NCBI GenBank assembly: GCA_003194485.1
Contig: PQXD01000011.1
Location: 6,093 to 70,092 of the forward strand
DNA: 64,000 nucleotides
DNA from: Deltaproteobacteria bacterium
GTDB taxonomy: Bacteria; Desulfobacterota; Dissulfuribacteria; Dissulfuribacterales; UBA3076
Direction of reading: 5' to 3'
In this document: positions 3,441 to 64,000 of the stretch, in pieces
How positions within the stretch are numbered: position 1 is the stretch's first letter
Layout: every line of letters starts with the position of its first letter
Position numbers and translations under genes: made by a program
The notes under the pieces: model-generated
The model's database searches: none
What the model was told of the DNA's origin: nothing
What the model saw: only the letters and a program-made list of their open reading frames with translations

Positions 3441-3636
3441 GTAAATATTCGGTGAGCCCGTGGTCCACTGTGGAAGTTGCCATCCGTGCCCTGCCGCAGG
3501 AGCGGTTTGCCTTTTGCAGGGTTTTGGGTAGCGGGCCGGATTGCACTGCCTCTCCGGTCTGCGATGAGTGAGCTTTGAAACCCGGAAAAAGGTAACCGCT
3601 TCAAGGCGGGATATAACGGGTTCACCGAATATTTAC
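3441..3636 (-). mobile_element. MITE copy A (196 bp, complete)
   Basis: TIRs GTAAATATTCGGTGAGCCCGT / ACGGGTTCACCGAATATTTAC. Perfect 8-bp TSD AAGGAGTG at 3433-3440 and 3637-3644. Confidence 0.9.
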
Positions 3637-7893: not shown

Positions 7894-9317
7894 GATACGG
7901 TCTGATTCTCATAGGGATTTTTCTCTTTACTCTTTTTACTCTTTCTGCCCATGCACAGGACATGCGTGAAGCCGCCATCAAGGCAAAGGCCGACCGTGAG
8001 GCCGCGCTGGCTGAAGCCGGGAAAAGCGCAAAACGGATAGCCGGCAACCGTGCTTCTCTTGAGAATGAAATCTCCCGGATGGCTGCCGAGGTTAAGGGGC
8101 TCAAGGCCGATATCAAGGCCATGAGCCACCAGCTTGAAAAGCTGCGAAAAAAGAAGGCAGAGCTCGTGCAGCAGCAGTCAGGCGATGAAATGGACATGCG
8201 GGAGCTTGCCGGCACGGTAAGGGTCGTGGCCAGGGACCTGGAGGGCGTGCTTGAACAGTCCCTTTTCACTGCCCGTTTTCCGGAGCGTCTTAATGACGTC
8301 AGGCCTGTCCTGAACAAGGAGCGTTTCCCCGGGCTGGACGACATGAAGGCCCTGACCGGCCTTTTTTTTAAGGAGATGTCTCTTTCAGGGGAGGTGGTCC
8401 TGCGAAGGGATTCTTTTGTGGACCGCAGCGGGACAGTGCAGGAAGGAAATATCCTGACCATCGGGAAATTTACCGCTGCTTATGAAGCGGGCGGCGAGAC
8501 GGGTTTTCTGAATTATTCCCCGGGCAGTCATCGACTCTTTGCCCTGTCCGCACTGCCTTCATGGTCGGTGAGGAAGAACCTTTCGCAATACATAAAGGGA
8601 GAGACAGAGGACGTGACCCTCGACTTTTCCGGCGGGGCAGCGCTCCGGCAAATCACACACAGGCCTACCCTGGTTGAGCGCATAAAACAGGGAGGTCCAA
8701 TCGTGTGGCCTATTCTGGCCATTGGTGTTTTTGCGATTTTGATCGTTATCGAGCGTACTCTTTTTTTGGCCAGAGTCCACGGGAACACCGACCTGATTAT
8801 GGGGAAAGTCAATGAGCATGCTTCAGAAGGAAGATGGACGGAATGTGAGACCATAGTGAGCACCGGCCAGGGGCAGCCCTGCTGCAATGTCCTGAGATGT
8901 GGGCTGGATGCCAGGAAAGAAGACAGGGAGACCCTTGAGAGCATCCTCCAGGAAGGCATTTTGAAGGAGGTCCCTCGGCTTGAGCGATATCTGCCCGTGC
9001 TCAACATCCTGGCCGCAATTGCCCCGTTGCTGGGCCTTCTCGGCACGGTCACAGGAATGATCAGTACCTTTCACGTCATCACCCTTTACGGCACCGGGGA
9101 CCCCCGCATGATGGCAGGGGGCATTTCAGAGGCCCTGGTCACCACAATGCTGGGGCTGGCCGTGGCAATCCCCATTATGCTCGCGCACACATTCCTCAGC
9201 CGCCGGGTGGATCACGTTATCGGAGACATGGAGGAAAAGGCCGTGGCCCTGACCAATATTATAGCACGAAACGGTCACTGCAGAGATCGTCAAATAGTTG
9301 AGTCGTTAAGTCGTTGA
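7890..9317 (+). CDS. Large MotA/TolQ/ExbB-family proton-channel protein (TtpC-like)
   Basis: 475 aa with an N-terminal periplasmic coiled-coil region and a C-terminal ExbB-like channel (LAAIAPLLGLLGTVTGMISTF, GGISEALVTTMLGLAVAIP). The last 12 codons lie in interspersed repeat family 2. Confidence 0.8.
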   Translation: MRYGLILIGIFLFTLFTLSAHAQDMREAAIKAKADREAALAEAGKSAKRIAGNRASLENEISRMAAEVKGLKADIKAMSHQLEKLRKKKAELVQQQSGDEMDMRELAGTVRVVARDLEGVLEQSLFTARFPERLNDVRPVLNKERFPGLDDMKALTGLFFKEMSLSGEVVLRRDSFVDRSGTVQEGNILTIGKFTAAYEAGGETGFLNYSPGSHRLFALSALPSWSVRKNLSQYIKGETEDVTLDFSGGAALRQITHRPTLVERIKQGGPIVWPILAIGVFAILIVIERTLFLARVHGNTDLIMGKVNEHASEGRWTECETIVSTGQGQPCCNVLRCGLDARKEDRETLESILQEGILKEVPRLERYLPVLNILAAIAPLLGLLGTVTGMISTFHVITLYGTGDPRMMAGGISEALVTTMLGLAVAIPIMLAHTFLSRRVDHVIGDMEEKAVALTNIIARNGHCRDRQIVESLSR

Positions 9318-9446
9318 ATCGAAAATAAGCATGTTAAATCAGTATATTAGACCTTCAACTACATCAAGTATCCAATTTTTGTGCAAACGATAAATTCAAA
9401 CAATAATAACCACTTAACTAATCAACTACTCAACCACTTAACGAGG
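9282..9446. repeat. Interspersed repeat family 2, copy 1 (inverted relative to 47544-47666)
   Basis: AGAGATCGTCAAATAGTTGAGTCGTTAAGTCGTTGA ... AATAATAACCACTTAACTAATCAACTACTCAACCACTTAACGAGG. Its reverse complement aligns end-to-end with 47544-47666. Confidence 0.7.
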
Positions 9447-12322: not shown

Positions 12323-12484
12323 TAACTTGTGATGAAGTACTGGCAACTTCAGCGGATGTGCTGGGTGTGCTCTGCCGCTTTGTTGCTACTACAGGGAAAA
12401 AACAGGTAAAGCCGGACAGGCTAAATGTAAAAAAACGACCTACTTCACAAGTCAGGTATCCTATAGCATTGGGAAACACAACAC

Positions 12485-12527
12485 AAAAAATAAGGCGCTG
12501 GTCAAGATAATGAACCAGCGCCTTTTT
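12485..12527. terminator. Bidirectional rho-independent terminator (TPR gene and porin 1)
   Basis: GGCGCTGGT-caagataatga-ACCAGCGCC (12494-12522), flanked by an A-run on one side and TTTTT on the other. Confidence 0.7.
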
Positions 12528-12561
12528 GATGAATGAAATTATTTAGGATAGATAGCTCTCT

Positions 12562-13809
12562 TTAGAATTCGACAGCTAATTGACCGAAGACCAGATCTCG
12601 CGTGTCTCTGTCATCAGCATCGTTATCATCATACTCGTCATACATATAGCCCACTGACAGGATTGTATTGTCAAAGATTTCCTGGTTGAAGTTGATCCCA
12701 TAACGATCTTCTGGTAATCCCAGGCCCCCGCAATCGCTGGAGCCGGCATACTTAAGGGCGATTTCGAGATTTCGCCACCAGTTGTAATTATACCCAATCT
12801 CAAAGTTCCATACTTCTGGCCTTGCGGCAGCGTTACCGTCACTGCCAGTATACAACTCTCCATGACCAAATTCTTCAGTGGCCGCCATATACTCTGCATC
12901 AAGGAAAATGCCCTGATAGCCAACATGGAAATATGCATCAGCACCGCCCACGTAATCTTCAATGTCGCCTACCAATGCGCCCTCCATACTGCAATCTGAA
13001 TCAGCGATATTGGAAATATATGAACCCCCGATAAGCATGTCTAAACCATAAGTTTCATTTTCAAAGGTATAGTTGGCGTCGAAACCATAACTTTCAATAA
13101 CATTGTCACTGCTGCTATCTTCTTCTACATCACCATTATAGGTGTACGCTGAAACTGTGAAACCTTTCCATTCAGCTCCGATCAACACGGCCTTTTCGAG
13201 TACCTCACCAAGCATCACTGTAAGAGGTGTATCGAGGAAGGGATCATCCGGGAAATGTTCAAAGAGCGCACCAAAAGGCACATACATCTTACCAGCTTTC
13301 AGAAAAGCGGGTATTTTTTCCGTATTTCCAATGGTGATAAATGCCTCGTCAATGTCCACACTTGTCTCGTCGTTGTCAAAGGTCGGATCCTCATAAAGCA
13401 GGACCATTTCCGCATTGACCCAATCATTGACCTCTGCCGCAATTCCGAGTTGAACAGTAGTCATGCAAAGATCGCTGTCCTTTTCATGGCCCCCATCCTT
13501 CATATCAATACTTTGATATGCTACTCCAAACTCAAGCAGGCCATTGATTGTGATGTGGTCTTCCAGGTCAGACAGAAAGCCGACACCTTCGGCACGCGAA
13601 GGTTCCGGGACCGCCTTCATTTCATTGAGTTGCTGTTCTACTTGCTTAAGTCGATCAGCGAGTGCCCGGTTTTGCTGGATCAACTCCTGCACCTGTTGAT
13701 CCAGGTTCCCCTCTCCTGCCAGAGAACTCGATACCCAGGAAACCGCTGCCATGGACACAATGCACAAGCCTAACAACAGAGCTCTCAAGATTTTAAAATA
13801 CATGACCAT
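12562..13809 (-). CDS. Outer-membrane porin with an N-terminal coiled coil (paralog 1)
   Basis: Signal peptide, coiled coil (NLDQQVQELIQQNRALADRLKQVEQQLNEMK), then an acidic beta-barrel ending ..LVFGQLAVEF. Confidence 0.75.
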   Translation of the reverse strand: MVMYFKILRALLLGLCIVSMAAVSWVSSSLAGEGNLDQQVQELIQQNRALADRLKQVEQQLNEMKAVPEPSRAEGVGFLSDLEDHITINGLLEFGVAYQSIDMKDGGHEKDSDLCMTTVQLGIAAEVNDWVNAEMVLLYEDPTFDNDETSVDIDEAFITIGNTEKIPAFLKAGKMYVPFGALFEHFPDDPFLDTPLTVMLGEVLEKAVLIGAEWKGFTVSAYTYNGDVEEDSSSDNVIESYGFDANYTFENETYGLDMLIGGSYISNIADSDCSMEGALVGDIEDYVGGADAYFHVGYQGIFLDAEYMAATEEFGHGELYTGSDGNAAARPEVWNFEIGYNYNWWRNLEIALKYAGSSDCGGLGLPEDRYGINFNQEIFDNTILSVGYMYDEYDDNDADDRDTRDLVFGQLAVEF

Positions 13810-14065: not shown

Positions 14066-14142
14066 TTCTATTTTATAAGACCAAAATGGCAATTGAAGAA
14101 AGTCGGAAGAGAGAAAGGATGGAGATCAAGATAACACAACAC

Positions 14143-14180
14143 AAAAAATAAGGCGCTGGTCAAGATAATGAACCAGCGCC
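14143..14180 (-). terminator. Rho-independent terminator of porin 2 (a duplicate of the 12494 hairpin)
   Basis: Identical hairpin GGCGCTGGT..ACCAGCGCC (14152-14180), followed on the minus strand by TTATTTTTTG. Confidence 0.7.
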
Positions 14181-14219
14181 TTGTTTGCTGAGTGAAATTA
14201 TTTAGGATAGATATAATCT

Positions 14220-15476
14220 TTAGAATTCGATGGCTAATTGACCGAAGATCAGGTCCCGTGTGTTTCGATCAAGATCATCATCTGTTGCATACTCGTCATA
14301 CATATAGCCCACTGACAGGATTGTATTGTCAAAGATCTCCTGGTTGAAGTTGATCCCGTAACGATCCCTCGGCAGCCTTAAAGATCCGCAATCGTCGGAT
14401 CCTGCATACTGAAGGGCGATTTCGAGATTTCTCCACCAGTTGTAGTTGTATCCCGCCTCAATGTTCCAGACTGTTGGCTTACCTAAATCTTCCCCCTCCA
14501 CATTTACGTGATCAACAGCCGCCATATACTCTGCCTCAACGAAGAGGCCCTGATAGCCAACGTGTAAGTAGGCAGCAGCGCCTTCCGCGTAATCATCAAT
14601 TTCCAAGTCGTAGTGGTCCAGCACTTCCTCTGTCCAGTCGGAGTCGGCTATATTTGAGATATATGAGCCACCGACGAGCAAGTCTAAACCAAGGTCCTCA
14701 TCCTCAAAGGCATAGTTGGCATCGAAACCATAAGTTTCAATAACATTGTCGCCGCCGCCGGCCTCCTCTACGTCACCGTTGAAAACATAGGCTGAAACCG
14801 TGAAACCTGCGTATTCAGCTCCGATTACCAGGGCTTTTTCAAGTGTCTCACCCAGGAGCAGGGTAAGGGGTGAATCAATGCCCATGTCATCCGGAAAATG
14901 CGTCAGGAGTGCGCCAAAGGGCACATACATCTTGCCTGCCCTCAGAAAACCCGGTGTTACGTCTGGATTTGCTATAGTAATAAATGCCTCCTCTACATCA
15001 AAGTTTGTCTCATCATCTCTAATGTCCTCATAAGTGTTTATTGCTCCAGACGGATCTTCAAAAAGCAGAATCATTTCCGCACTTACCCAGTCATTGATCT
15101 CCGCTTCAATCCCGAGTTCAACACTAGTCATCGAAATGTCACTGTCATGTTCAAAACCACTATGGTTCATGTCAGTGCTGTGGTACGCTGCTCCAAACTC
15201 AAGCAGGCCATTGATTGTGATGTGGTCTTCCAGGTCAGACAGAAAGCCGACACCTTCGGCACGCGAAGGTTCCGGGACCGCCTTCATTTCATTGAGCTGC
15301 TGCTCCACTTCCGTAAGTCGATCAGTGAGTGCCCGGTTTTGCTGGATCAACTCCTGCACCTGTTGTTCCAGATTTCCTTCTTCTGCCAGAGAACTCGATA
15401 CCCAGGAAACCGCTGCCATGGACACAATGCACAAGCCTAACAACAGAGCTCTCAAGGTTTTAAAATACATGACCAT
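14220..15476 (-). CDS. Outer-membrane porin with an N-terminal coiled coil (paralog 2)
   Basis: Collinear with porin 1 and ends ..LIFGQLAIEF. The start is set to the ATG at 15476 (MVMYFK.., GGGGAGG RBS), matching paralog 1. The track ORF starts at 15485. Confidence 0.75.
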   Translation of the reverse strand: MVMYFKTLRALLLGLCIVSMAAVSWVSSSLAEEGNLEQQVQELIQQNRALTDRLTEVEQQLNEMKAVPEPSRAEGVGFLSDLEDHITINGLLEFGAAYHSTDMNHSGFEHDSDISMTSVELGIEAEINDWVSAEMILLFEDPSGAINTYEDIRDDETNFDVEEAFITIANPDVTPGFLRAGKMYVPFGALLTHFPDDMGIDSPLTLLLGETLEKALVIGAEYAGFTVSAYVFNGDVEEAGGGDNVIETYGFDANYAFEDEDLGLDLLVGGSYISNIADSDWTEEVLDHYDLEIDDYAEGAAAYLHVGYQGLFVEAEYMAAVDHVNVEGEDLGKPTVWNIEAGYNYNWWRNLEIALQYAGSDDCGSLRLPRDRYGINFNQEIFDNTILSVGYMYDEYATDDDLDRNTRDLIFGQLAIEF

Positions 15477-15538
15477 CCTCCCCATTCACTTAATAAGTTG
15501 TTGTGATTCATTTAGAAAAAACCCAAAACCCGAATAGT

Positions 15539-19184: not shown

Positions 19185-19238
19185 TGTCCAGTACTTAGAA
19201 TACAGTGAAATAATCTGCATCTCGTTTGCCAGTTTATA

Positions 19239-19298
19239 CTTTCTTCAAAAAATGTGCGCTATCGAATTGAATACGGATGCTGAAAACGGAAATTCGAA
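19239..19298. repeat. Interspersed repeat family 3, copy 1 (partner at 35357-35417)
   Basis: CTTTCTTCAAAAAA.GT.C..TATC.AATTGAATACGGATGCTGAAA.CGGAAATTCGAA is shared between the two loci. Confidence 0.55.
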
Positions 19299-19526
19299 CG
19301 CCAAATAATCCGCCCTGGATACGCTCTGCCTTCCCGCCTCAATACCATTTTCAACCAATGCCTTCTTGACCGACATGGCTTCATTACGAGGCATTTTAAG
19401 GATAGTCCATAGTACAGCAGTATGGCAGGTATGAACCACTGGAGTAGCCCGAAGACATGACCTGAAATTTTAACGCAAAGATCTACTGCGAAGAAAACAC
19501 CCGAAGTGAGGACGATGGCCAGGTGC

Positions 19527-19695
19527 CCTGCCTTGGAGCGGTTACCTTTTTCCGGGTTTCAAAGCTCACTCATCGCAGACCGTAGAGGCAGTGCAATCCG
19601 GCCCGCGATCGAAACCCTGCAAAAGGCAAACCGCTCCTGCGGCAGGGCACGGATGGCAACTTCCACAGTGGACCACGGGTTCACCGGATATTTAC
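19527..19695 (+). mobile_element. MITE copy B (left ~30 nt, including the TIR, is missing)
   Basis: Homology starts at CCTGCCTTGGAGCGG and runs to an intact right TIR ..ACGGGTTCACCGGATATTTAC. No TSD is detectable. Confidence 0.8.
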
Positions 19696-21291: not shown

Positions 21292-21486
21292 GTAAATATT
21301 CGGTAAACCCGTTACATCCTGCCTTGGAGCGGTTACCTTTTTCCGGGTTTCAAAGCTCACTCATCGCAGACCGGAGAGGCAGTGCAATCCGGCCCGCGAT
21401 CGAAACCCTGCAAAAGGCAAACCGCTCCTGCGGCAGGGCACGGATGGCAACTTCCACAGTGGACCACGGGTTCATAGAATATTTAC
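21292..21486 (+). mobile_element. MITE copy C (195 bp, complete)
   Basis: Both TIRs are present. Perfect TSD CAGTTTGA at 21284-21291 and 21487-21494. Confidence 0.9.
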
Positions 21487-25918: not shown

Positions 25919-26110
25919 ATGTGCCAGTCCACAGTTTATCTAAAAAAGGCCGATACGGAAGAAGAGATATTGCGTGATGCAATCCTGGTAGAACACTGTC
26001 CTGAAGGGGTCAGAATACAGGGATTGTTTGATGCACCTAAAATCATTCCTGCCCGCATTGCCATCGTTGATCTGTTAAAGAACAGGATCATATTGGAGTC
26101 CCGGAAATAG
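25919..26110 (+). CDS. cooT: CooT-family nickel-binding protein
   Basis: 63 aa. MCQSTVYLKKAD...LFD...IVDL... follows the CooT pattern, including Cys2. Confidence 0.75.
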   Translation: MCQSTVYLKKADTEEEILRDAILVEHCPEGVRIQGLFDAPKIIPARIAIVDLLKNRIILESRK

Positions 26111-26179
26111 TACCTTTTCAATCAACAATAGTTTAAGATAATATGTAACTGTTTGCGGATGGAAACTTGAAATTGGAAA

Positions 26180-26582
26180 GTAAATATTCGGTGAACCCGT
26201 TATATCCTGCCTTGAAGCGGTTACCTTTTTCCGGGTTTCAAAGCTCACTCATCGCAGACCGGAGAGGCAGTGCAATCCGGCCCGCTACCCAAAACCCCGA
26301 AAAAAGGCAAACCGCTCCTGCGGCAGGGGGCACGGATGGCAACCGTTCACTGGAGGGGATATTTCTTTGAACAGTTTAACGGAAGCCCCCGTAGTTTTCT
26401 CGGCTTTTGCTGTGGGGAAAACTGCATCGCCTGAGCGCAGCGTAAGGCGAATGCAGAGGGGGCAGGACATCCCCCATGTCAAAGGCCTTAAGAAAACAAG
26501 GGGCTGAAGTGTGAAGTGAAAAGAAATATCCCCTTCCCGTGAACGGTTTGCGGAATGGACTACGGGTTCACCGGATATTTAC
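26180..26582 (+). mobile_element. MITE copy D, 403-bp composite (long) form
   Basis: The outer TIRs are those of the family. Perfect TSD ATTGGAAA at 26172-26179 and 26583-26590. An extra ~205-bp internal segment is bounded by inside-out TIR-like inverted repeats (26343-26365 and 26523-26546). Confidence 0.9.
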
Positions 26583-26627
26583 ATTGGAAATCCGTGTATG
26601 TGAATGAGATTAAGGAGTTGCCATTTA

Positions 26628-26903
26628 ATGACTGATTTGGAAAAGTTGCGTATCCTTCTTCCCCACTGGATTAACCACAACCAGGAACACATAGCAGAGT
26701 TCAAGAGGTGGGCTGAGTTATGTAAAGATTCAGACAACATCCGTCTGGCAGAAGCATTCAAAAAGGCGATAAACACCTCTGAACAGGTAACGAGAGAGTT
26801 GCAATATGCCTTGGATCTGGCCGGAGGTCCCGTTGAGGGTCCGGAACGCCATGGCCATCACTACGGACATGGTCATACTCATCACGAACATGGAAGGGAT
26901 TAA
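26628..26903 (+). CDS. Small hypothetical protein with a His-rich C-terminal tail
   Basis: The ATG at 26628 lies 10 nt after an AAGGAG. The C-terminus is ..PERHGHHYGHGHTHHEHGRD. Its stop overlaps the thrC start. Confidence 0.6.
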   Translation: MTDLEKLRILLPHWINHNQEHIAEFKRWAELCKDSDNIRLAEAFKKAINTSEQVTRELQYALDLAGGPVEGPERHGHHYGHGHTHHEHGRD

Positions 26904-35328: not shown

Positions 35329-35344
35329 TTCACCGGATATTTAC
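35329..35344. repeat. Solo MITE terminal repeat remnant
   Basis: TTCACCGGATATTTAC is an exact 16-nt match to the family's right TIR, with no element body attached. It lies 17 nt upstream of the DUF503 start. Confidence 0.55.
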
Positions 35345-35356
35345 CACTGGTTTGCA

Positions 35357-35417
35357 CTTTCTTCAAAAAAACGTACATTATCAAATTGAATACGGATGCT
35401 GAAACTGGAAATTCGAA
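35357..35417. repeat. Interspersed repeat family 3, copy 2
   Basis: See 19239-19298. Confidence 0.55.
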
Positions 35418-35469
35418 ATTAGGCAACATATCTGCATCTTTTTGTTTTCCCCAATTTCAAATTTCACAT

Positions 35470-35873
35470 GTAAATATCCGGTGAACCCGTAGTCCATTCC
35501 GCAAACCGTTCACGGGAAGGGGATATTTCTTTTCACTTCACACTTTAGCCCCTTGTTTTCTTAAGGCCTTTGACATGGGGGATGTCCTGCCCCCTCTGCA
35601 TTCGCCTTACGCTGCGCTCAGGCGATGCAGTTTTCCCCACAGCAAAAGCCGAGAAAACTACGGGGGCTTCCGTTAAACTGTTCAAAGAAATATCCCCTCC
35701 AGTGAACGGTTGCCATCCGTGCCCCCTGCCGCAGGAGCGGTTTGCCTTTTTTCGGGGTTTTGGGTAGCGGGCCGGATTGCACTGCCTCTCCGGTCTGCGA
35801 TGAGTGAGCTTTGAAACCCGGAAAAAGGTAACCGCTCCAAGGCAGAATATAACGGGTTCATAAGAATATTTAC
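35470..35873 (-). mobile_element. MITE copy E, 404-bp composite (long) form, inverted relative to copy D
   Basis: The reverse complement differs from copy D at about 6 positions by eye. Perfect TSD TTTCACAT at 35462-35469 and 35874-35881. The right TSD contains the infB stop codon. Confidence 0.9.
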
Positions 35874-35875
35874 TT

Positions 35876-38659
35876 TCACATTTCTTTCTCTCTGGCATCA
35901 GATATAGATTCTCCGAGGACAGGGGTTTCTTCTCTCATTATATAAGTCTCTATTATGTCCCCTGTCTTTATGTCATTGAACTTTTCAAGGCCTATTCCGC
36001 ATTCATACCCGGCCTGGACTTCTTTCGCGTCTTCTTTGAAGCGACGAAGAGATGCTATCTTGCCTTTATAAGTTACCACGTTGTCTCTTAAAAGCCTGGC
36101 CTTGGCATTTCTTTTGATCAAGCCTTCCAGCACATAGCACCCTGCCACTGTACCGACTTTGCCAATGTGGAAGACGTCACGAACCTCGGCGCGTCCCATG
36201 GGCTCTTCCCTGTAGACAGGTTCAAGCAAACCTGCCATGGCATCTTTAATTTCCTCAATGGCATGGTAAATGACATCGTAGAAGCGGATGTCCACATGTT
36301 CATGTTCAGCTAAGGCCTTTGCCTGTGGGCTGGGCTTTACATTAAAGCCTATGATGCTGGCATTTGAAGCAGATGCCAGCAAGACGTCGGATTCAGTGAT
36401 GGCCCCGATACCGCTCCTGACGAAATTTACCTTTATCTCTTGGGTACTGAGCTTGTGCAGTGCCTCTGCAAGGGCCTCCACAGAACCCTGAACATCAGCC
36501 TTGAGCACTATATTGAGTTCCTTGAGTTCCTCCTCCCGGAGTCTTTCAAAGACATTTTCCAGACTTACTTTGCTGCTCCTGAGCAGTTCCTTCTCTCTTA
36601 TCTTGCGCTGGCGATACTCAGCCACCTCTCTGGCCTTCTTGTCGTCAGAAAGTACCGTGAATTCGTTTCCTGGCTCAGGCACGCCGGAGAGACCCTGGAT
36701 TTCCACTGGCATGGAGGGACGGGCAGCCTTTATCCTTTCATCCTTGTCGTTGAGCATGGCCCTCACTCTGCCGTGATGTATACCACAGACGAGAGCGTCA
36801 CCTATATGCAGTGTACCTTCTGAGACCAAAAGGGTAGCCACGGGACCACGCCCTCTGTCCAGCTTGGCTTCTATCACGTGACCTCTGGCAGGCCGCTTGG
36901 GATCTGCCTTGAGCTCCATCACCTCGGCCTGGAGGGCCATCATCTCAAGCAGTTCTTCTATTCCCGTTTTTTCTTTGGCAGAGATGTTGATGCAAATGGT
37001 CTCTCCGCCCCAATCCTCAAGAACTAATCCCAGTTCAGAAAGTTGCCTTTTTACTTTTTCCGGATTAGCCCCCGGCTTGTCGATTTTGTTGATTGCTACA
37101 ATGATAGGGACCCCGGCTGCCCGGGCGTGATCTATGGCCTCATGTGTCTGGGCCATTACACCGTCATCCGCCGCTACCAGCAGTATCACGATATCAGTAA
37201 CCTTGGCTCCGCGAGCCCTCATGGCTGTGAATGATTCATGGCCCGGGGTGTCCAGAAAGACTACCTCCTGACCAAAGGGAAGTGTGACATGATATGCGCC
37301 TATATGCTGGGTGATGCCGCCTGCCTCCTTTGAAGCCACATCTGCTTTACGGATGGCATCCAGGAGCGTGGTCTTTCCATGATCTACGTGGCCCATGATT
37401 GTGACCACAGGGGGTCTTGGCACAGGCTCGCCCTCCCGGACATCCTCTGTGTGGACCAGGTCCTCAGCCACAGACTTCTTCTCCAGTTCATAGTCAAACC
37501 CAGAGGCCACGATGCTGGCTACGTCGTAATCGACAGACTGATTAACTGTGGCCATTACGCCCAGGTCCATGAGCTTCATTATGACGTCTCCCGCCCTGAC
37601 GCCCATCCGCTTGGCAAGCTCACCCACCTGAATAGTCTCGTATATGGCAAACCTTCGTTTGCCTGCCTTGGGAGGGGCGGTACTGGGCTTAAGGACAACT
37701 TCCTCCTTTTGTGCTGAATCGCCGTAATCCCTGGAAATTTCCTTTTTTTCCCGGCCGGATACTGTTATATCAATCTCCTCCGCAAGAATTTTGTTTATAT
37801 GTTTCTGTTTTTCCTTCCACTTCGGAGTAACCCGGCGTTTTTTGAGCGGCTTTTCCAACTCCGACATCTGGACTACTCTCTTGCCCTTCTTTTTGCTTTT
37901 TTTTTCAGGAACTGCAGAGATATCAATTAAGGGAACCGGCGGTTCCTTAGAGAGTTCATCCGGATGGAGAGGTAATGTGGTCCGGCGAGCATGGCTTTCT
38001 GGTTTATCGTTTTTTTGACGGGAGATTTTAATCCTCGGCAGATCGAGGATCTTTACAAAGCTTTCGGGTTTATCAGCCCTGGTCTTTTTTACAGTCTTGG
38101 GTTTATGGGTGGTCTCGGGCAGAGCAGGCTGTTTTTCAGGTACAGATTCTTTATCTGATCCTGATGCAGTTCCGGTTACCTCCTGTCCGGATTCGATTTC
38201 TGGCCGTTCTCTTTCAATAGTCGGGGCTTCCTCCACGGCCTTAATTTCTTCCTCTTTCCCGGCGACAGGAGCAGCCCCCTGCACCTCTTCTTCTGTTCCC
38301 GCAGCCTTATCCGGTTTATCTGTAGTAGTTTCTGGTTCTGCCTCAACTGGTTTTTCAGCCTCTTTTCTCTGTACCTCGACAATAGTCTCGCCTTTAGTCT
38401 CAGTTGAACGAACGATTTTTTTGAGGATAATTTTCCGGTGCCTGAGACGCACCGTGGTTTTTGGCTCGGCCTCCTGCTTTTTCTTTGCCGCCGCATGCGC
38501 CTCACCCCTCAGTTTGCGGCGGATATCCCGGGCCTCATAGTCCTCAAGTGTACTCATATAATTCTTGATGTTGTAGCCAAGATCAATAATCTTGGCCGCC
38601 ATCTCTTTACTGGCTACCCCGAATTCTTTGGCCAGCTCATGAACTCTGATTTTAGTCAT
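35876..38659 (-). CDS. infB: Translation initiation factor IF-2
   Basis: 927 aa. [18 protein letters not shown], and NKID. Confidence 0.95.
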
Positions 38660-40907: not shown

Positions 40908-41088
40908 ATAAATATCCGGTGAACGGTTGCCATCCGTGCCCTGCCGCAGGAGCGGCTTGCCTTTTTACGGGGTTTTGGGTGGCGGGCCGGATTGCACTGC
41001 CTCTCCGGTCTGCGATGAGTGAGCCTTGAAACCCAGAAAAAGGTAACCGCTCCAAGGCAGGATATAACGGGTTCATAAGAATATTTAC
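40908..41088 (-). mobile_element. MITE copy F (181 bp, a short variant)
   Basis: One TIR is ATAAATATCCGGTGAACGG, and the arm lacks the ~18-nt GGTCCACTGTGGAAG segment. Perfect TSD TATGATCC at 40900-40907 and 41089-41096. Confidence 0.88.
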
Positions 41089-43970: not shown

Positions 43971-44171
43971 GTAAATATTCGGTGAACCAGTTATATCCTG
44001 CCTTGGAATGGTCACCTTTTTCCGGGTTTCAAAGCTCACTCATCGCAGACCGGAGAGGCAGTGCAATCCGGCCCGCTACCCAAAACCCCGTAAAAAGGCA
44101 AACCGCTTCCGCGGCAGGGCACGGATGACAAATGCAAGGCACAGTGGACCTCGGGTTCACCGGATATTTAC
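43971..44171 (+). mobile_element. MITE copy G (201 bp, complete)
   Basis: Perfect TSD AATCGAAA at 43963-43970 and 44172-44179. Confidence 0.9.
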
Positions 44172-47016: not shown

Positions 47017-47211
47017 GTAAATATTCGGTGAACCCGTTATATCCTGTCTTGGAGCGGTTACCTTTTTCCGGGTTTCAAAGCTCACTCATCGCAGACCGGA
47101 GAGGCAGTGCAATCCGACCCGCGATCGAAACCCTGCAAAAGGCAAACCGCTCCTGCGGCAGGGCACGGATGGCAACTTCCTCAGTGGACCACGGGTTCAC
47201 CGAATATTTAC
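47017..47211 (+). mobile_element. MITE copy H (195 bp, complete; reference copy)
   Basis: TIRs GTAAATATTCGGTGAACCCGT / ACGGGTTCACCGAATATTTAC. Perfect TSD TGTCGCGA at 47009-47016 and 47212-47219. Confidence 0.92.
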
Positions 47212-47543: not shown

Positions 47544-47666
47544 CCTCGTTAAGTGGTTGATTAGTTGATTCGTTAAATAGTTATTATTATATAACTTCTC
47601 AATAAGTTCGGGCAAATCATATTTTCCGACTCAACGACTCAACGACTTAACTATTTGACGATCTCT
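47544..47666. repeat. Interspersed repeat family 2, copy 2
   Basis: CCTCGTTAAGTGGTTGATTAGTTGA ... TCAACGACTCAACGACTTAACTATTTGACGATCTCT. It fills the gatC-gatA spacer. Confidence 0.7.
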
Positions 47667-47684
47667 GAATTGAGAAAGTGCAAA

Positions 47685-56892: not shown

Positions 56893-57063
56893 GTAAATAT
56901 CCGGTGAACCCGTTATATCCTGCCTTGAAGCGGTTACCTTTTTCCGGGTTTCAAAGCTCACTCATTGCGGACCGGAGAGGCAGTGCAATCCGGCCCGCGA
57001 TCGAAACCCTGCAAAAGGCAAACCGCTCCTGCGGCAGGGCACGGATGGCAACCTCCACAGTGG
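56893..57063 (+). mobile_element. MITE copy I (right end decayed or truncated)
   Basis: The left TIR and body are intact up to ..CCACAGTGG. The following sequence is only vaguely TIR-like up to ~57108. No TSD. Confidence 0.8.
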
Positions 57064-57227
57064 GCTACCGATTCCGGCATCAGGCGGGATTTGGCGATAT
57101 TATTAAACAGGGCATGCGAAAAAAATCAAAAAAAAATCCGTTAAAAGATTAAAGTATGTATAATGTTTTGCCGAAAAATAAAATACCTCCTTAGAATGGC
57201 TTCTCAAAGCCCTTCTTCTCCTCTTGT

Positions 57228-63807: not shown

Positions 63808-63875
63808 CAGAGCATTTTTGGAATAACATTTTGGGTAACCGGTCACAGGGCGAGATCTTCTTTCAACATGCTATC

Positions 63876-63992
63876 GCCCTTTGTTTTATAAAGCTTTTGC
63901 AGCGGGGGATTCCTGCCCCCTCCCCGTTCTCCTTCGCTTCGCTCCGGAGCCGGGGTTTCCCCCGCTGCAAAAGCCGATAAAACTTACAGGGC
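63876..63992. repeat. ~117-bp palindromic element next to the window edge
   Basis: Perfect 17-bp arms GCTTTTGCAGCGGGGGA (63893-63909) and TCCCCCGCTGCAAAAGC (63958-63974). Imperfect pairing extends outwards (GCCCTTTGTTTTAT.. against ..ATAAAACTTACAGGGC), and there are nested inner stems. Confidence 0.55.
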
Positions 63993-64000
63993 TAACGCAA

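Follow-up and report, generated by a model that had tools for sequence, protein, structure and literature searches.

The 64,000-nucleotide stretch of deltaproteobacterial DNA analysed here (contig PQXD01000011.1; hereafter, the window) contains two long copies, D and E, of a repeat whose standard form measures about 195 bp, and copy D, at positions 26180–26582, raises the question of where its additional DNA came from. [quoted passage not shown] The original prediction, made from the letters of the window, was that two adjacent MITEs had trapped about 150 bp of unrelated DNA and moved it from their outermost ends, as in a composite transposon. We favour another explanation, to which we assign a probability of about 0.8: D and E are two-part elements in which a second MITE, of a separate family P, is nested in the right arm of MITE-1. 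The features concerned are the following.

26180–26582, plus strand: copy D, 403 bp, with ATTGGAAA on each side (26172–26179 = 26583–26590), read directly
26172–26179, plus strand: left TSD of D, ATTGGAAA
26180–26338, plus strand: left arm and core of the host element (MITE-1), left TIR GTAAATATTCGGTGAACCCGT, terminating in ..GCACGGATG
26339–26550, plus strand: putative nested MITE of the second family, P (subfamily P1), about 212 bp, ends GCAACCGTTCAC... and ...GTGAACGGTTTG
26339–26368, plus strand: left TIR of P1, formerly described as the left inner repeat
26369–26519, plus strand: interior of P1, a long imperfect hairpin, formerly described as the passenger
26520–26550, plus strand: right TIR of P1, formerly described as the right inner repeat
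26551–26582, plus strand: rest of the MITE-1 right arm, CGGAATGG followed by the right TIR ACGGGTTCACCGGATATTTAC
26583–26590, plus strand: right TSD of D, ATTGGAAA
35470–35873, minus strand: copy E, 404 bp, TSD TTTCACAT at 35462–35469 and 35874–35881 (whole, 35462–35881)
about 35502–35713, minus strand: P1 within E, the same putative nested composite as in D
63835–64000, minus strand: stand-alone P element of subfamily P2, clipped by the end of the window

What had been described directly from the sequence is accurate. D and E share their outer TIRs, have perfect 8-bp TSDs of their own and contain the same extra block, and in a repeat search of the window their arms are complementary at 99% across 400 nt. 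The block is bounded in D by CCGTTCACTGGAGGGGATATTTC (26343–26365) and GAAATATCCCCTTCCCGTGAACGG (26523–26546), with the perfect 14-bp inverted core GGGGATATTTCTTT/AAAGAAATATCCCC. The host part at 26180–26338 aligns with the eight other copies in the window and with 193 matches among those listed from about 1 Mb of related metagenome contigs, and the ends GTAAATATTCGGTGAACCCGT and ACGGGTTCACCGGATATTTAC recur in dozens of copies besides D and E. Immediately to the right of P1, CGGAATGG is possibly a degenerate copy of the CGGATGG on its left.

The inner block also exists on its own. A weak repeat match tied the interior of E to 63894–63934, where a diverged version of the whole block, inverted repeats included, lies without any surrounding MITE-1; a complete copy of this P2 element, in L104 (L numbers are our handles for sampled loci), has the flanks CAAAAATG/CCAAAATG. 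A pattern built from the core common to D, E and the window-end copy matches exactly those three places in the window and six loci in bacterial contigs sampled at one genome per species, five of the six in metagenome-assembled genomes (MAGs) labelled Seep-SRB2 and the sixth in a deltaproteobacterial MAG. These six elements are intergenic and stand-alone and span GTAACCGTTCAC to GTGAACGGTTAC; their 8-bp TSDs include AGAATTAA on both sides (L011), AATTCCAG/AATTTCAG (L008), CTATGAAT/CCATGGAT (L007) and AAGAATTT/GAAAATTT (L012). The canonical ends of the family are GTAAC...GTTAC, and P1 of D and E is 84% identical to P in L010 and L011. Because homologues of the block at 26339–26550 stand alone with their own 8-bp TSDs (L007–L012 and L104), we assign the block to a second MITE family, P, so that the "inside-out repeats" are the terminal repeats of a P1 element nested in the right arm of MITE-1. 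No source locus for a passenger outside a MITE context emerged among these matches, the interior always being accompanied by its own P terminal repeats and flanked by TSDs. P2 is nested in the same arm of MITE-1 with a clean TSD (CAGTGGAC on both sides in L070, CAATGGAC/CAGTGGAC in L027), and therefore nesting of P in MITE-1 by transposition does occur.

The interior of the block, formerly taken for about 150 bp of unrelated DNA, is instead the conserved hairpin of family P. In 22 diverse copies it adopts a single long hairpin, with 97% of the cells paired and compensatory changes at 16 of the 38 pairs, a value reached in none of 500 shuffles, with at most 4 such pairs in slid controls. P folded alone gives z = −8.7, and in the 403-nt strand of D the outer repeats close a structure of two adjacent hairpins (z = −8.3). 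The reported likeness of the inner repeats to the outer TIRs turned inside-out is real, if modest (local alignment CACGGG..CA..GGATATTT, equalled or bettered in 2 of 2000 shuffles), while the repeats themselves are the termini of P.

Metagenome contigs amounting to about 1 Mb were scanned with a MITE-1 core pattern, which gave at least 118 loci. In the counts below, redundancy was removed by comparison of the flanks and both outer ends were required; unless stated otherwise, comparisons among copies refer to the matches listed from this sample.

Standard short form (194–197 bp): at least 39 loci
Odd short form: at least 3 loci
Long form with P1 in the orientation of D (395–404 bp): at least 17 loci
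Long form with the interior of P1 flipped (L128): at least 1 locus
Long form with nested P2, displaced rightward by a few bases (378–409 bp; multi-nested 538, 602 and 708 bp): at least 4–5 loci

At least 17 long copies with P1, one flipped copy and 4–5 copies with P2 thus stand beside at least 42 short ones. Nine of the P1-containing loci have perfect, mutually different 8-bp TSDs, and therefore the composite has transposed many times, far more often than the window alone could reveal. It did so as a unit bounded by its outer TIRs, and in this the original prediction is supported. Pairwise divergence among the 17 long copies is the same for P1 and for the core, at 6.9% each, so that the nesting dates back as far as the present diversity of the family; short copies differ from each other by 5.1%. 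The long form is an old and major subfamily comprising roughly a third of the copies in the sequences sampled.

Every copy of P1 at 87% identity or more in the sample abuts a MITE-1 core or a contig end, and P1 seems to have spread in this organism only as a passenger of MITE-1. Its central stem exists in two variants, CTGCATCGCC..GGCGAATGCAG at 11 loci and CCCCGGCTCC..GGAGAACGGGG at 5, the latter identical to the P2 module. Independent compensatory mutation was set aside as the origin of the two variants on account of this identity, and exchange of whole modules between P1 and P2 copies is the more likely source. In L128 the interior of P1 is inverted and its asymmetric termini are unmoved (GCAAC on the left, GTTAT on the right); independent insertion is ruled out by this arrangement, which suggests that the 30-bp repeats of P itself recombined to invert what lies between them.

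Q (L039:2256–2560, L070:3367–4074, L046:1937–2474) is a third family of repeats, of about 260 bp with the ends TTATCCCAAATTATGCA and TGCATAATTCGGGATAA; it stands alone at many loci and is also nested just within the left end or arm of MITE-1. One site holds a multi-nested element of 708 bp in L070 or 538 bp in L046, with the TSD AAGGAAGC.

The direction of change between the long and short forms can be followed most directly at copy F, which the original prediction had treated as a complete short element and as a building block of D. F does terminate in ..GGCAACCGTTCACCGGATATTTAT as described. In L033, however, the site of F is occupied by a 397-bp long form with the same flanks and the same TSD, GGATCATA, from which F differs by the loss of 216 bp between the GTTCAC of the left P1 repeat and the GTTCAC of the right end of MITE-1. 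The junction found in F occurs once in about 1.08 Mb, and the other proposed building block, the right-hand "mini-element", is never found alone among the matches listed from the same 1.08 Mb. F is thus a one-off deletion of the long form and not its progenitor.

For the standard short form the evidence lies in the junctions. All short forms read ..GCACGGATG GCAAC TTC CACAGTGG ACCACGGG.., and the long forms in L122 and L077 read ..GCACGGATG (GCAACCGTTCAC...GTGAACGGTCTG) CACAGTGG ACC.., where the parentheses enclose P1; in D and E the right side is ..(...GGTTTG) CGGAATGG ACT... The GCAAC retained in the short forms is the terminal pentamer of P1, with the same T-to-C change from GTAAC, and both flanking repeats, GCACGGATGG and CACAGTGG, are retained as well. 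The short forms thereby keep an approximate direct repeat, CACGGATGG with CACAGTGG or CGGAATGG, which looks like the decayed TSD of the entry of P1. No short copy among the matches listed lacks GCAAC or the second flanking repeat. Loss of the palindrome from the long form is therefore the probable origin of the standard short forms; conversion of long to short by deletion within an unstable palindrome is seen in F and inferred for the 195-bp form. At the position of P1, short copies (e.g., 47017–47211; L016, L020, L106) have a mini-hairpin, TTCCACAGTGGA or TTCCGCAGCGGA, which differ by a compensatory A-T to G-C swap and are linked by intermediates such as CCACAGCGG.

The opposite order, in which the short form is original, P1 entered once, the long form is derived though old and the standard short copies never held P1, is the less probable of the two. 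Short copies are about twice as numerous among the matches listed, the nesting of P2 demonstrates that such insertions happen, and the junction of the G type, GGCAACTTCAAAGCACAGTGG, would take two deletions to derive from a long form. Set against this are the exact position of GCAAC at the P1 terminus, together with both flanking repeats, in short copies; the lack of any listed short copy without these features; the diversity of long copies, which equals or exceeds that of short ones; and the conversion observed directly between L033 and F.

Exchange between copies complicates these histories. The core haplotypes ..GCGATCGAAACCC.. and ..GCTACCCAAAACCC.. are each found in both length classes, the core tree mixes long copies with short ones, and F and L033 share a site and differ in core haplotype. 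On these sequence patterns, recurrent exchange blurs the history of long and short forms.

D and E themselves illustrate this. In other assemblies of the same loci (L001, L002 and L003, L001 being 99.86% identical to the window over 19 kb), both copies are long and differ by 6–8% (about 92–94% alike), and D has a distinct right junction, GGTTACGTGAGACC. In the window, only the first 110 nt or so of D are D-specific, the remaining right three-quarters being E-like, and in L004, an independent ENA assembly, the E-like allele is likewise attached to the unique flank of D. The near-identity of D and E in the window resembles the outcome of gene conversion between two inverted copies separated by 9 kb; less probably, the E-like D stems from repeats collapsed in both assemblies. 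In either case, recent transposition cannot be read from the 99% identity. It should be noted that the far-side duplication of E (35462–35469) is ATGTGAAA in the window and L001, but ATTGGAAA, the TSD of D, in L002, L003 and L004; a conversion tract between D and E may have reached a few bases past the end of E.

As to mechanism, a DDE transposase making 8-bp staggered cuts, supplied in trans and probably of the IS66 type, would recognise the outer ends of MITE-1 and mobilise the elements. P1 would be carried passively inside MITE-1 and would have multiplied in this genome only in this way, in a composite as old as the present diversity of the family. Deletion within the palindrome would turn long copies into short ones, and gene conversion would shuffle the variants, as it would have done in making D nearly identical to E. 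Elements of the IS66 family have terminal repeats of 20–30 bp starting with GTAAGCG and 8-bp TSDs (PMC11946415). The ends of MITE-1 and P, GTAAATATT and GTAACCG, contain GTAA without the following GCG and have TSDs of the same length; the tentative assignment to IS66 is drawn from these two features, which fit that family.

Several observations weigh against the nested explanation or limit its details. The TSD flanking the nested P1 is approximate (CACGGATG and CACAGTGG match at 5 of 8 positions, and CGGATGG and CGGAATGG differ by one indel), and because of this the direction of change between short and long is not proven. With 160 nt and about 5% divergence, the core tree is poorly resolved, and recombination blurs it. 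The sample consists of short-read metagenome contigs that break at these repeats and represent more than one strain. Neither a transposase nor any longer element bounded by these ends turned up in the window, where Pfam scans of 40 proteins gave only housekeeping genes, or in about 1 Mb of related contigs; this sample is biased, and contigs assembled from short reads are interrupted by insertion sequences. A search for paired MITE-1 ends or any GTAA-type inverted repeat, spaced 0.6–4.5 kb and with matching 8-bp TSDs in either case, yielded nested MITEs only, and an all-against-all search for dispersed repeats of 0.45–6 kb yielded only a duplicated multihaem-like gene and conserved genes common to related genomes. 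One protein of 397 amino acids, Cys/His-rich and possibly a multihaem cytochrome, is encoded in two contexts (L099:6731–7924 and L058:160–1684) at 99% DNA identity; it is not a transposase.

Of the remaining explanations, one reverses the polarity of the nesting: a long element with two hairpins would be original, and its inner GTAAC..GTTAC hairpin would have escaped to become the stand-alone P. We regard this as unlikely. The long form is indeed as old as the family, P1 is never alone among the listed matches from this species, the TSD around it is degenerate and the ends of P are related to those of MITE-1. At least three other genomes, however, contain P without MITE-1 in the flanks sampled; P is therefore more widespread than its host element, and P2 has entered MITE-1 with a clean 8-bp TSD. 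The original prediction had itself named a long ancestral form, with the short forms as deletions of it, as what would overturn it. This scenario is partly borne out: the deletion is seen in F and short-form descent is probable, but the inner block does have an independent existence, in the P elements.

A related proposal is that P originated as DNA enclosed by a pair of MITE-1-like ends, gained mobility through subterminal GTAAC sites, and now carries in its hairpin a functional RNA or single-stranded DNA signal that rides inside MITE-1, including in the infB operon. The 28-nt ends of P do align with inside-out MITE-1 ends; we would give this scenario little credence.

Harder still to sustain is the spread of the hairpin block by selection, as a functional structured RNA or DNA signal (a terminator, stabiliser or small RNA). 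The strong compensatory covariation and conserved loop sequence would suit it, as would the place of E within a conserved operon and an excess of G-U over A-C cells on the strand shown (44 to 11, in an alignment that includes 26381–26503), a possible hint that one strand, as RNA or single-stranded DNA, is under selection, but counted by pair or column this bias is 16 to 9 and not significant. No Rfam family matches: a scan of the whole window passes four tRNAs only, and the best score of a sensitive scan of 26100–26660 is 26 bits against a cut-off of 36. Moreover, the module shared by P1 and P2 suggests exchange between copies rather than independent compensation, and TSDs and terminal repeats already explain the spread.

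Capture of about 150 bp of unrelated DNA between an F-like element and a 63-bp mini-element, the two moving from their outermost ends, is now very improbable. It has in its favour the resemblance of the inner repeats to inside-out outer ends and a unit bounded by outer repeats and an 8-bp TSD; the inner block, repeats included, is nevertheless a free-standing family with its own TSDs, compensatory changes across species attest to the conservation of its interior, F arose by deletion at a single locus and the mini-element is never alone among the matches listed, so both flanking elements and the passenger fail. An assembly error duplicating a single locus can practically be dismissed, since D and E, although 99% identical in the window and located where short-read assemblies break, differ in their unique flanks and TSDs, recur with those flanks in independent JGI and ENA assemblies and diverge by 6–8% in L001, L002 and L003.

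The other copies of MITE-1 in the window, which bring the total to nine (A–I), are as follows.

3441–3636, minus strand: copy A, short MITE-1, 196 bp, TSD CACTCCTT
about 19499–19695: copy B, MITE-1, truncated
21292–21486, plus strand: copy C, short MITE-1, 195 bp, TSD CAGTTTGA
40908–41088, minus strand: copy F, 181 bp, TSD GGATCATA, in-situ deletion derivative of the long form
43971–44171, plus strand: copy G, short MITE-1, 201 bp, TSD AATCGAAA, right-arm junction of a variant type into which P2 has inserted elsewhere
47017–47211, plus strand: copy H, short MITE-1, 195 bp, TSD TGTCGCGA
about 56893–57075: copy I, MITE-1, degenerate

Copies of 181–409 bp have no coding capacity; indels of 1–3 nt between copies break any frame, and the open reading frames (ORFs) that overlap them are short and mechanical. 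About 65 or more distinct complete loci are present among the matches listed from about 1 Mb, 45 non-redundant ones have an 8-bp TSD with at most one mismatch, perfect in 33, and the insertion sites are AT-rich (34% G+C). MITE-1 is thus a MITE in the usual sense: small and non-coding, with TIRs, fixed-length, locus-specific TSDs and many dispersed copies. In BLAST searches uninterrupted paralogous targets were found for copies that had landed in P or other repeats; no orthologous empty site for D or E was seen in the sampled contigs. Short-read contigs of the region (L002–L006) start or end within D and E. With nine MITE-1 copies and one P2 in 64 kb of housekeeping chromosome, or about one element per 6–7 kb, the repeat density of the window is very high.

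The insertion point of copy E coincides with the IF-2 stop codon (ORF 35876–38659, minus strand), the TGA being inside the TSD at 35874–35881; the 404 bp of E separate infB from the DUF503/rbfA/truB/rpsO/pnp genes and leave the reading frames intact. Another insertion may have left as its remnant the 16 nt at 35329–35344, an isolated match to the right end of MITE-1 (TTCACCGGATATTTAC) located 17 nt upstream of the start codon of DUF503. Adjoining copies B and E is an intergenic stretch of about 68 nt (19232–19298 and 35350–35417; 85% identical) with the conserved pattern ..TTCTTCAAAAAA.GT.C..TATC.AATTGAATACGGATGCTGAAA..GGAAATTCGAA and weaker relatives in L125 and L069.

Two further kinds of repeat were noted in the window. 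At 12475–13809 and 14133–15485, a porin-like outer-membrane gene and its downstream terminator-like region are duplicated in tandem, and the repeats concerned (families D2–D9) are 74–98% identical and about 1.65 kb apart. An inverted-repeat pair at 9275–9446 and 47544–47673, with arms of 51–54 nt that are 85–88% complementary and contain short AACGA/TTAAG-type motifs, probably represents another small repeat family.

Taken together, our results describe the long repeat as ordinary, if tidy, nested transposons, without capture of host DNA and without any new mechanism. For annotation, the long and short repeats are one family plus a nested second family, not a case of gene capture, and no recent activity should be read into the close match between D and E. 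An uncultured syntrophic sulfate reducer related to Seep-SRB2 nevertheless holds an unusually dense, interacting set of MITEs that land in each other, travel together, lose palindromic inserts and overwrite one another by gene conversion. The set offers useful natural data on the turnover of bacterial MITEs and accounts for the breaks in short-read assemblies at such sites in this organism. MITE-1 and P are undescribed as sequence families: neither matches Rfam, plasmid or phage records or viral contigs. Our literature search found no paper on Seep-SRB2 repeats and no prokaryotic review, a recent one on MITEs included, that mentions nested MITEs.

The closest bacterial counterparts are Nezha of Anabaena and Nostoc and Chunjie of Geobacter uraniireducens, reviewed in PMC3184786, which also mentions a MITE-flanked integron of Acinetobacter. 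Like MITE-1 and P, Nezha and Chunjie are small, non-coding and palindromic, with TIRs, fixed-length TSDs and many dispersed intergenic copies, and Chunjie, like copy E, lies within an operon without breaking a gene. The present case differs in that one MITE carries another, the pair is amplified together and nine MITE-1 copies occur within 64 kb. Composite transposons and MITE-flanked cassettes resemble D and E in being units with two outer ends that a transposase can use; here, in contrast, there are no two flanking elements and no captured host DNA, and the inner block is itself mobile. The likeness to IS66 consists of 5'-GTAA ends and an 8-bp TSD, and the difference of GTAAATATT and GTAACCG in place of GTAAGCG (PMC11946415). 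The mosaic palindromic arrays known as BIMEs, REP clusters and REPINs also fold into hairpins. REP-type elements are short G+C-rich palindromes that make no TSD and are moved by RAYT enzymes, whereas 8-bp TSDs are the rule here, 33 of 45 being perfect. Nesting is familiar from the Tourist and Stowaway MITEs of plants, whose preference for insertion into related repeats gives multi-layer composites. Compared with these, the host of MITE-1 and P is a bacterium, the composite forms a major transposing subfamily and the nested part has spread, it seems, only as a hitch-hiker.

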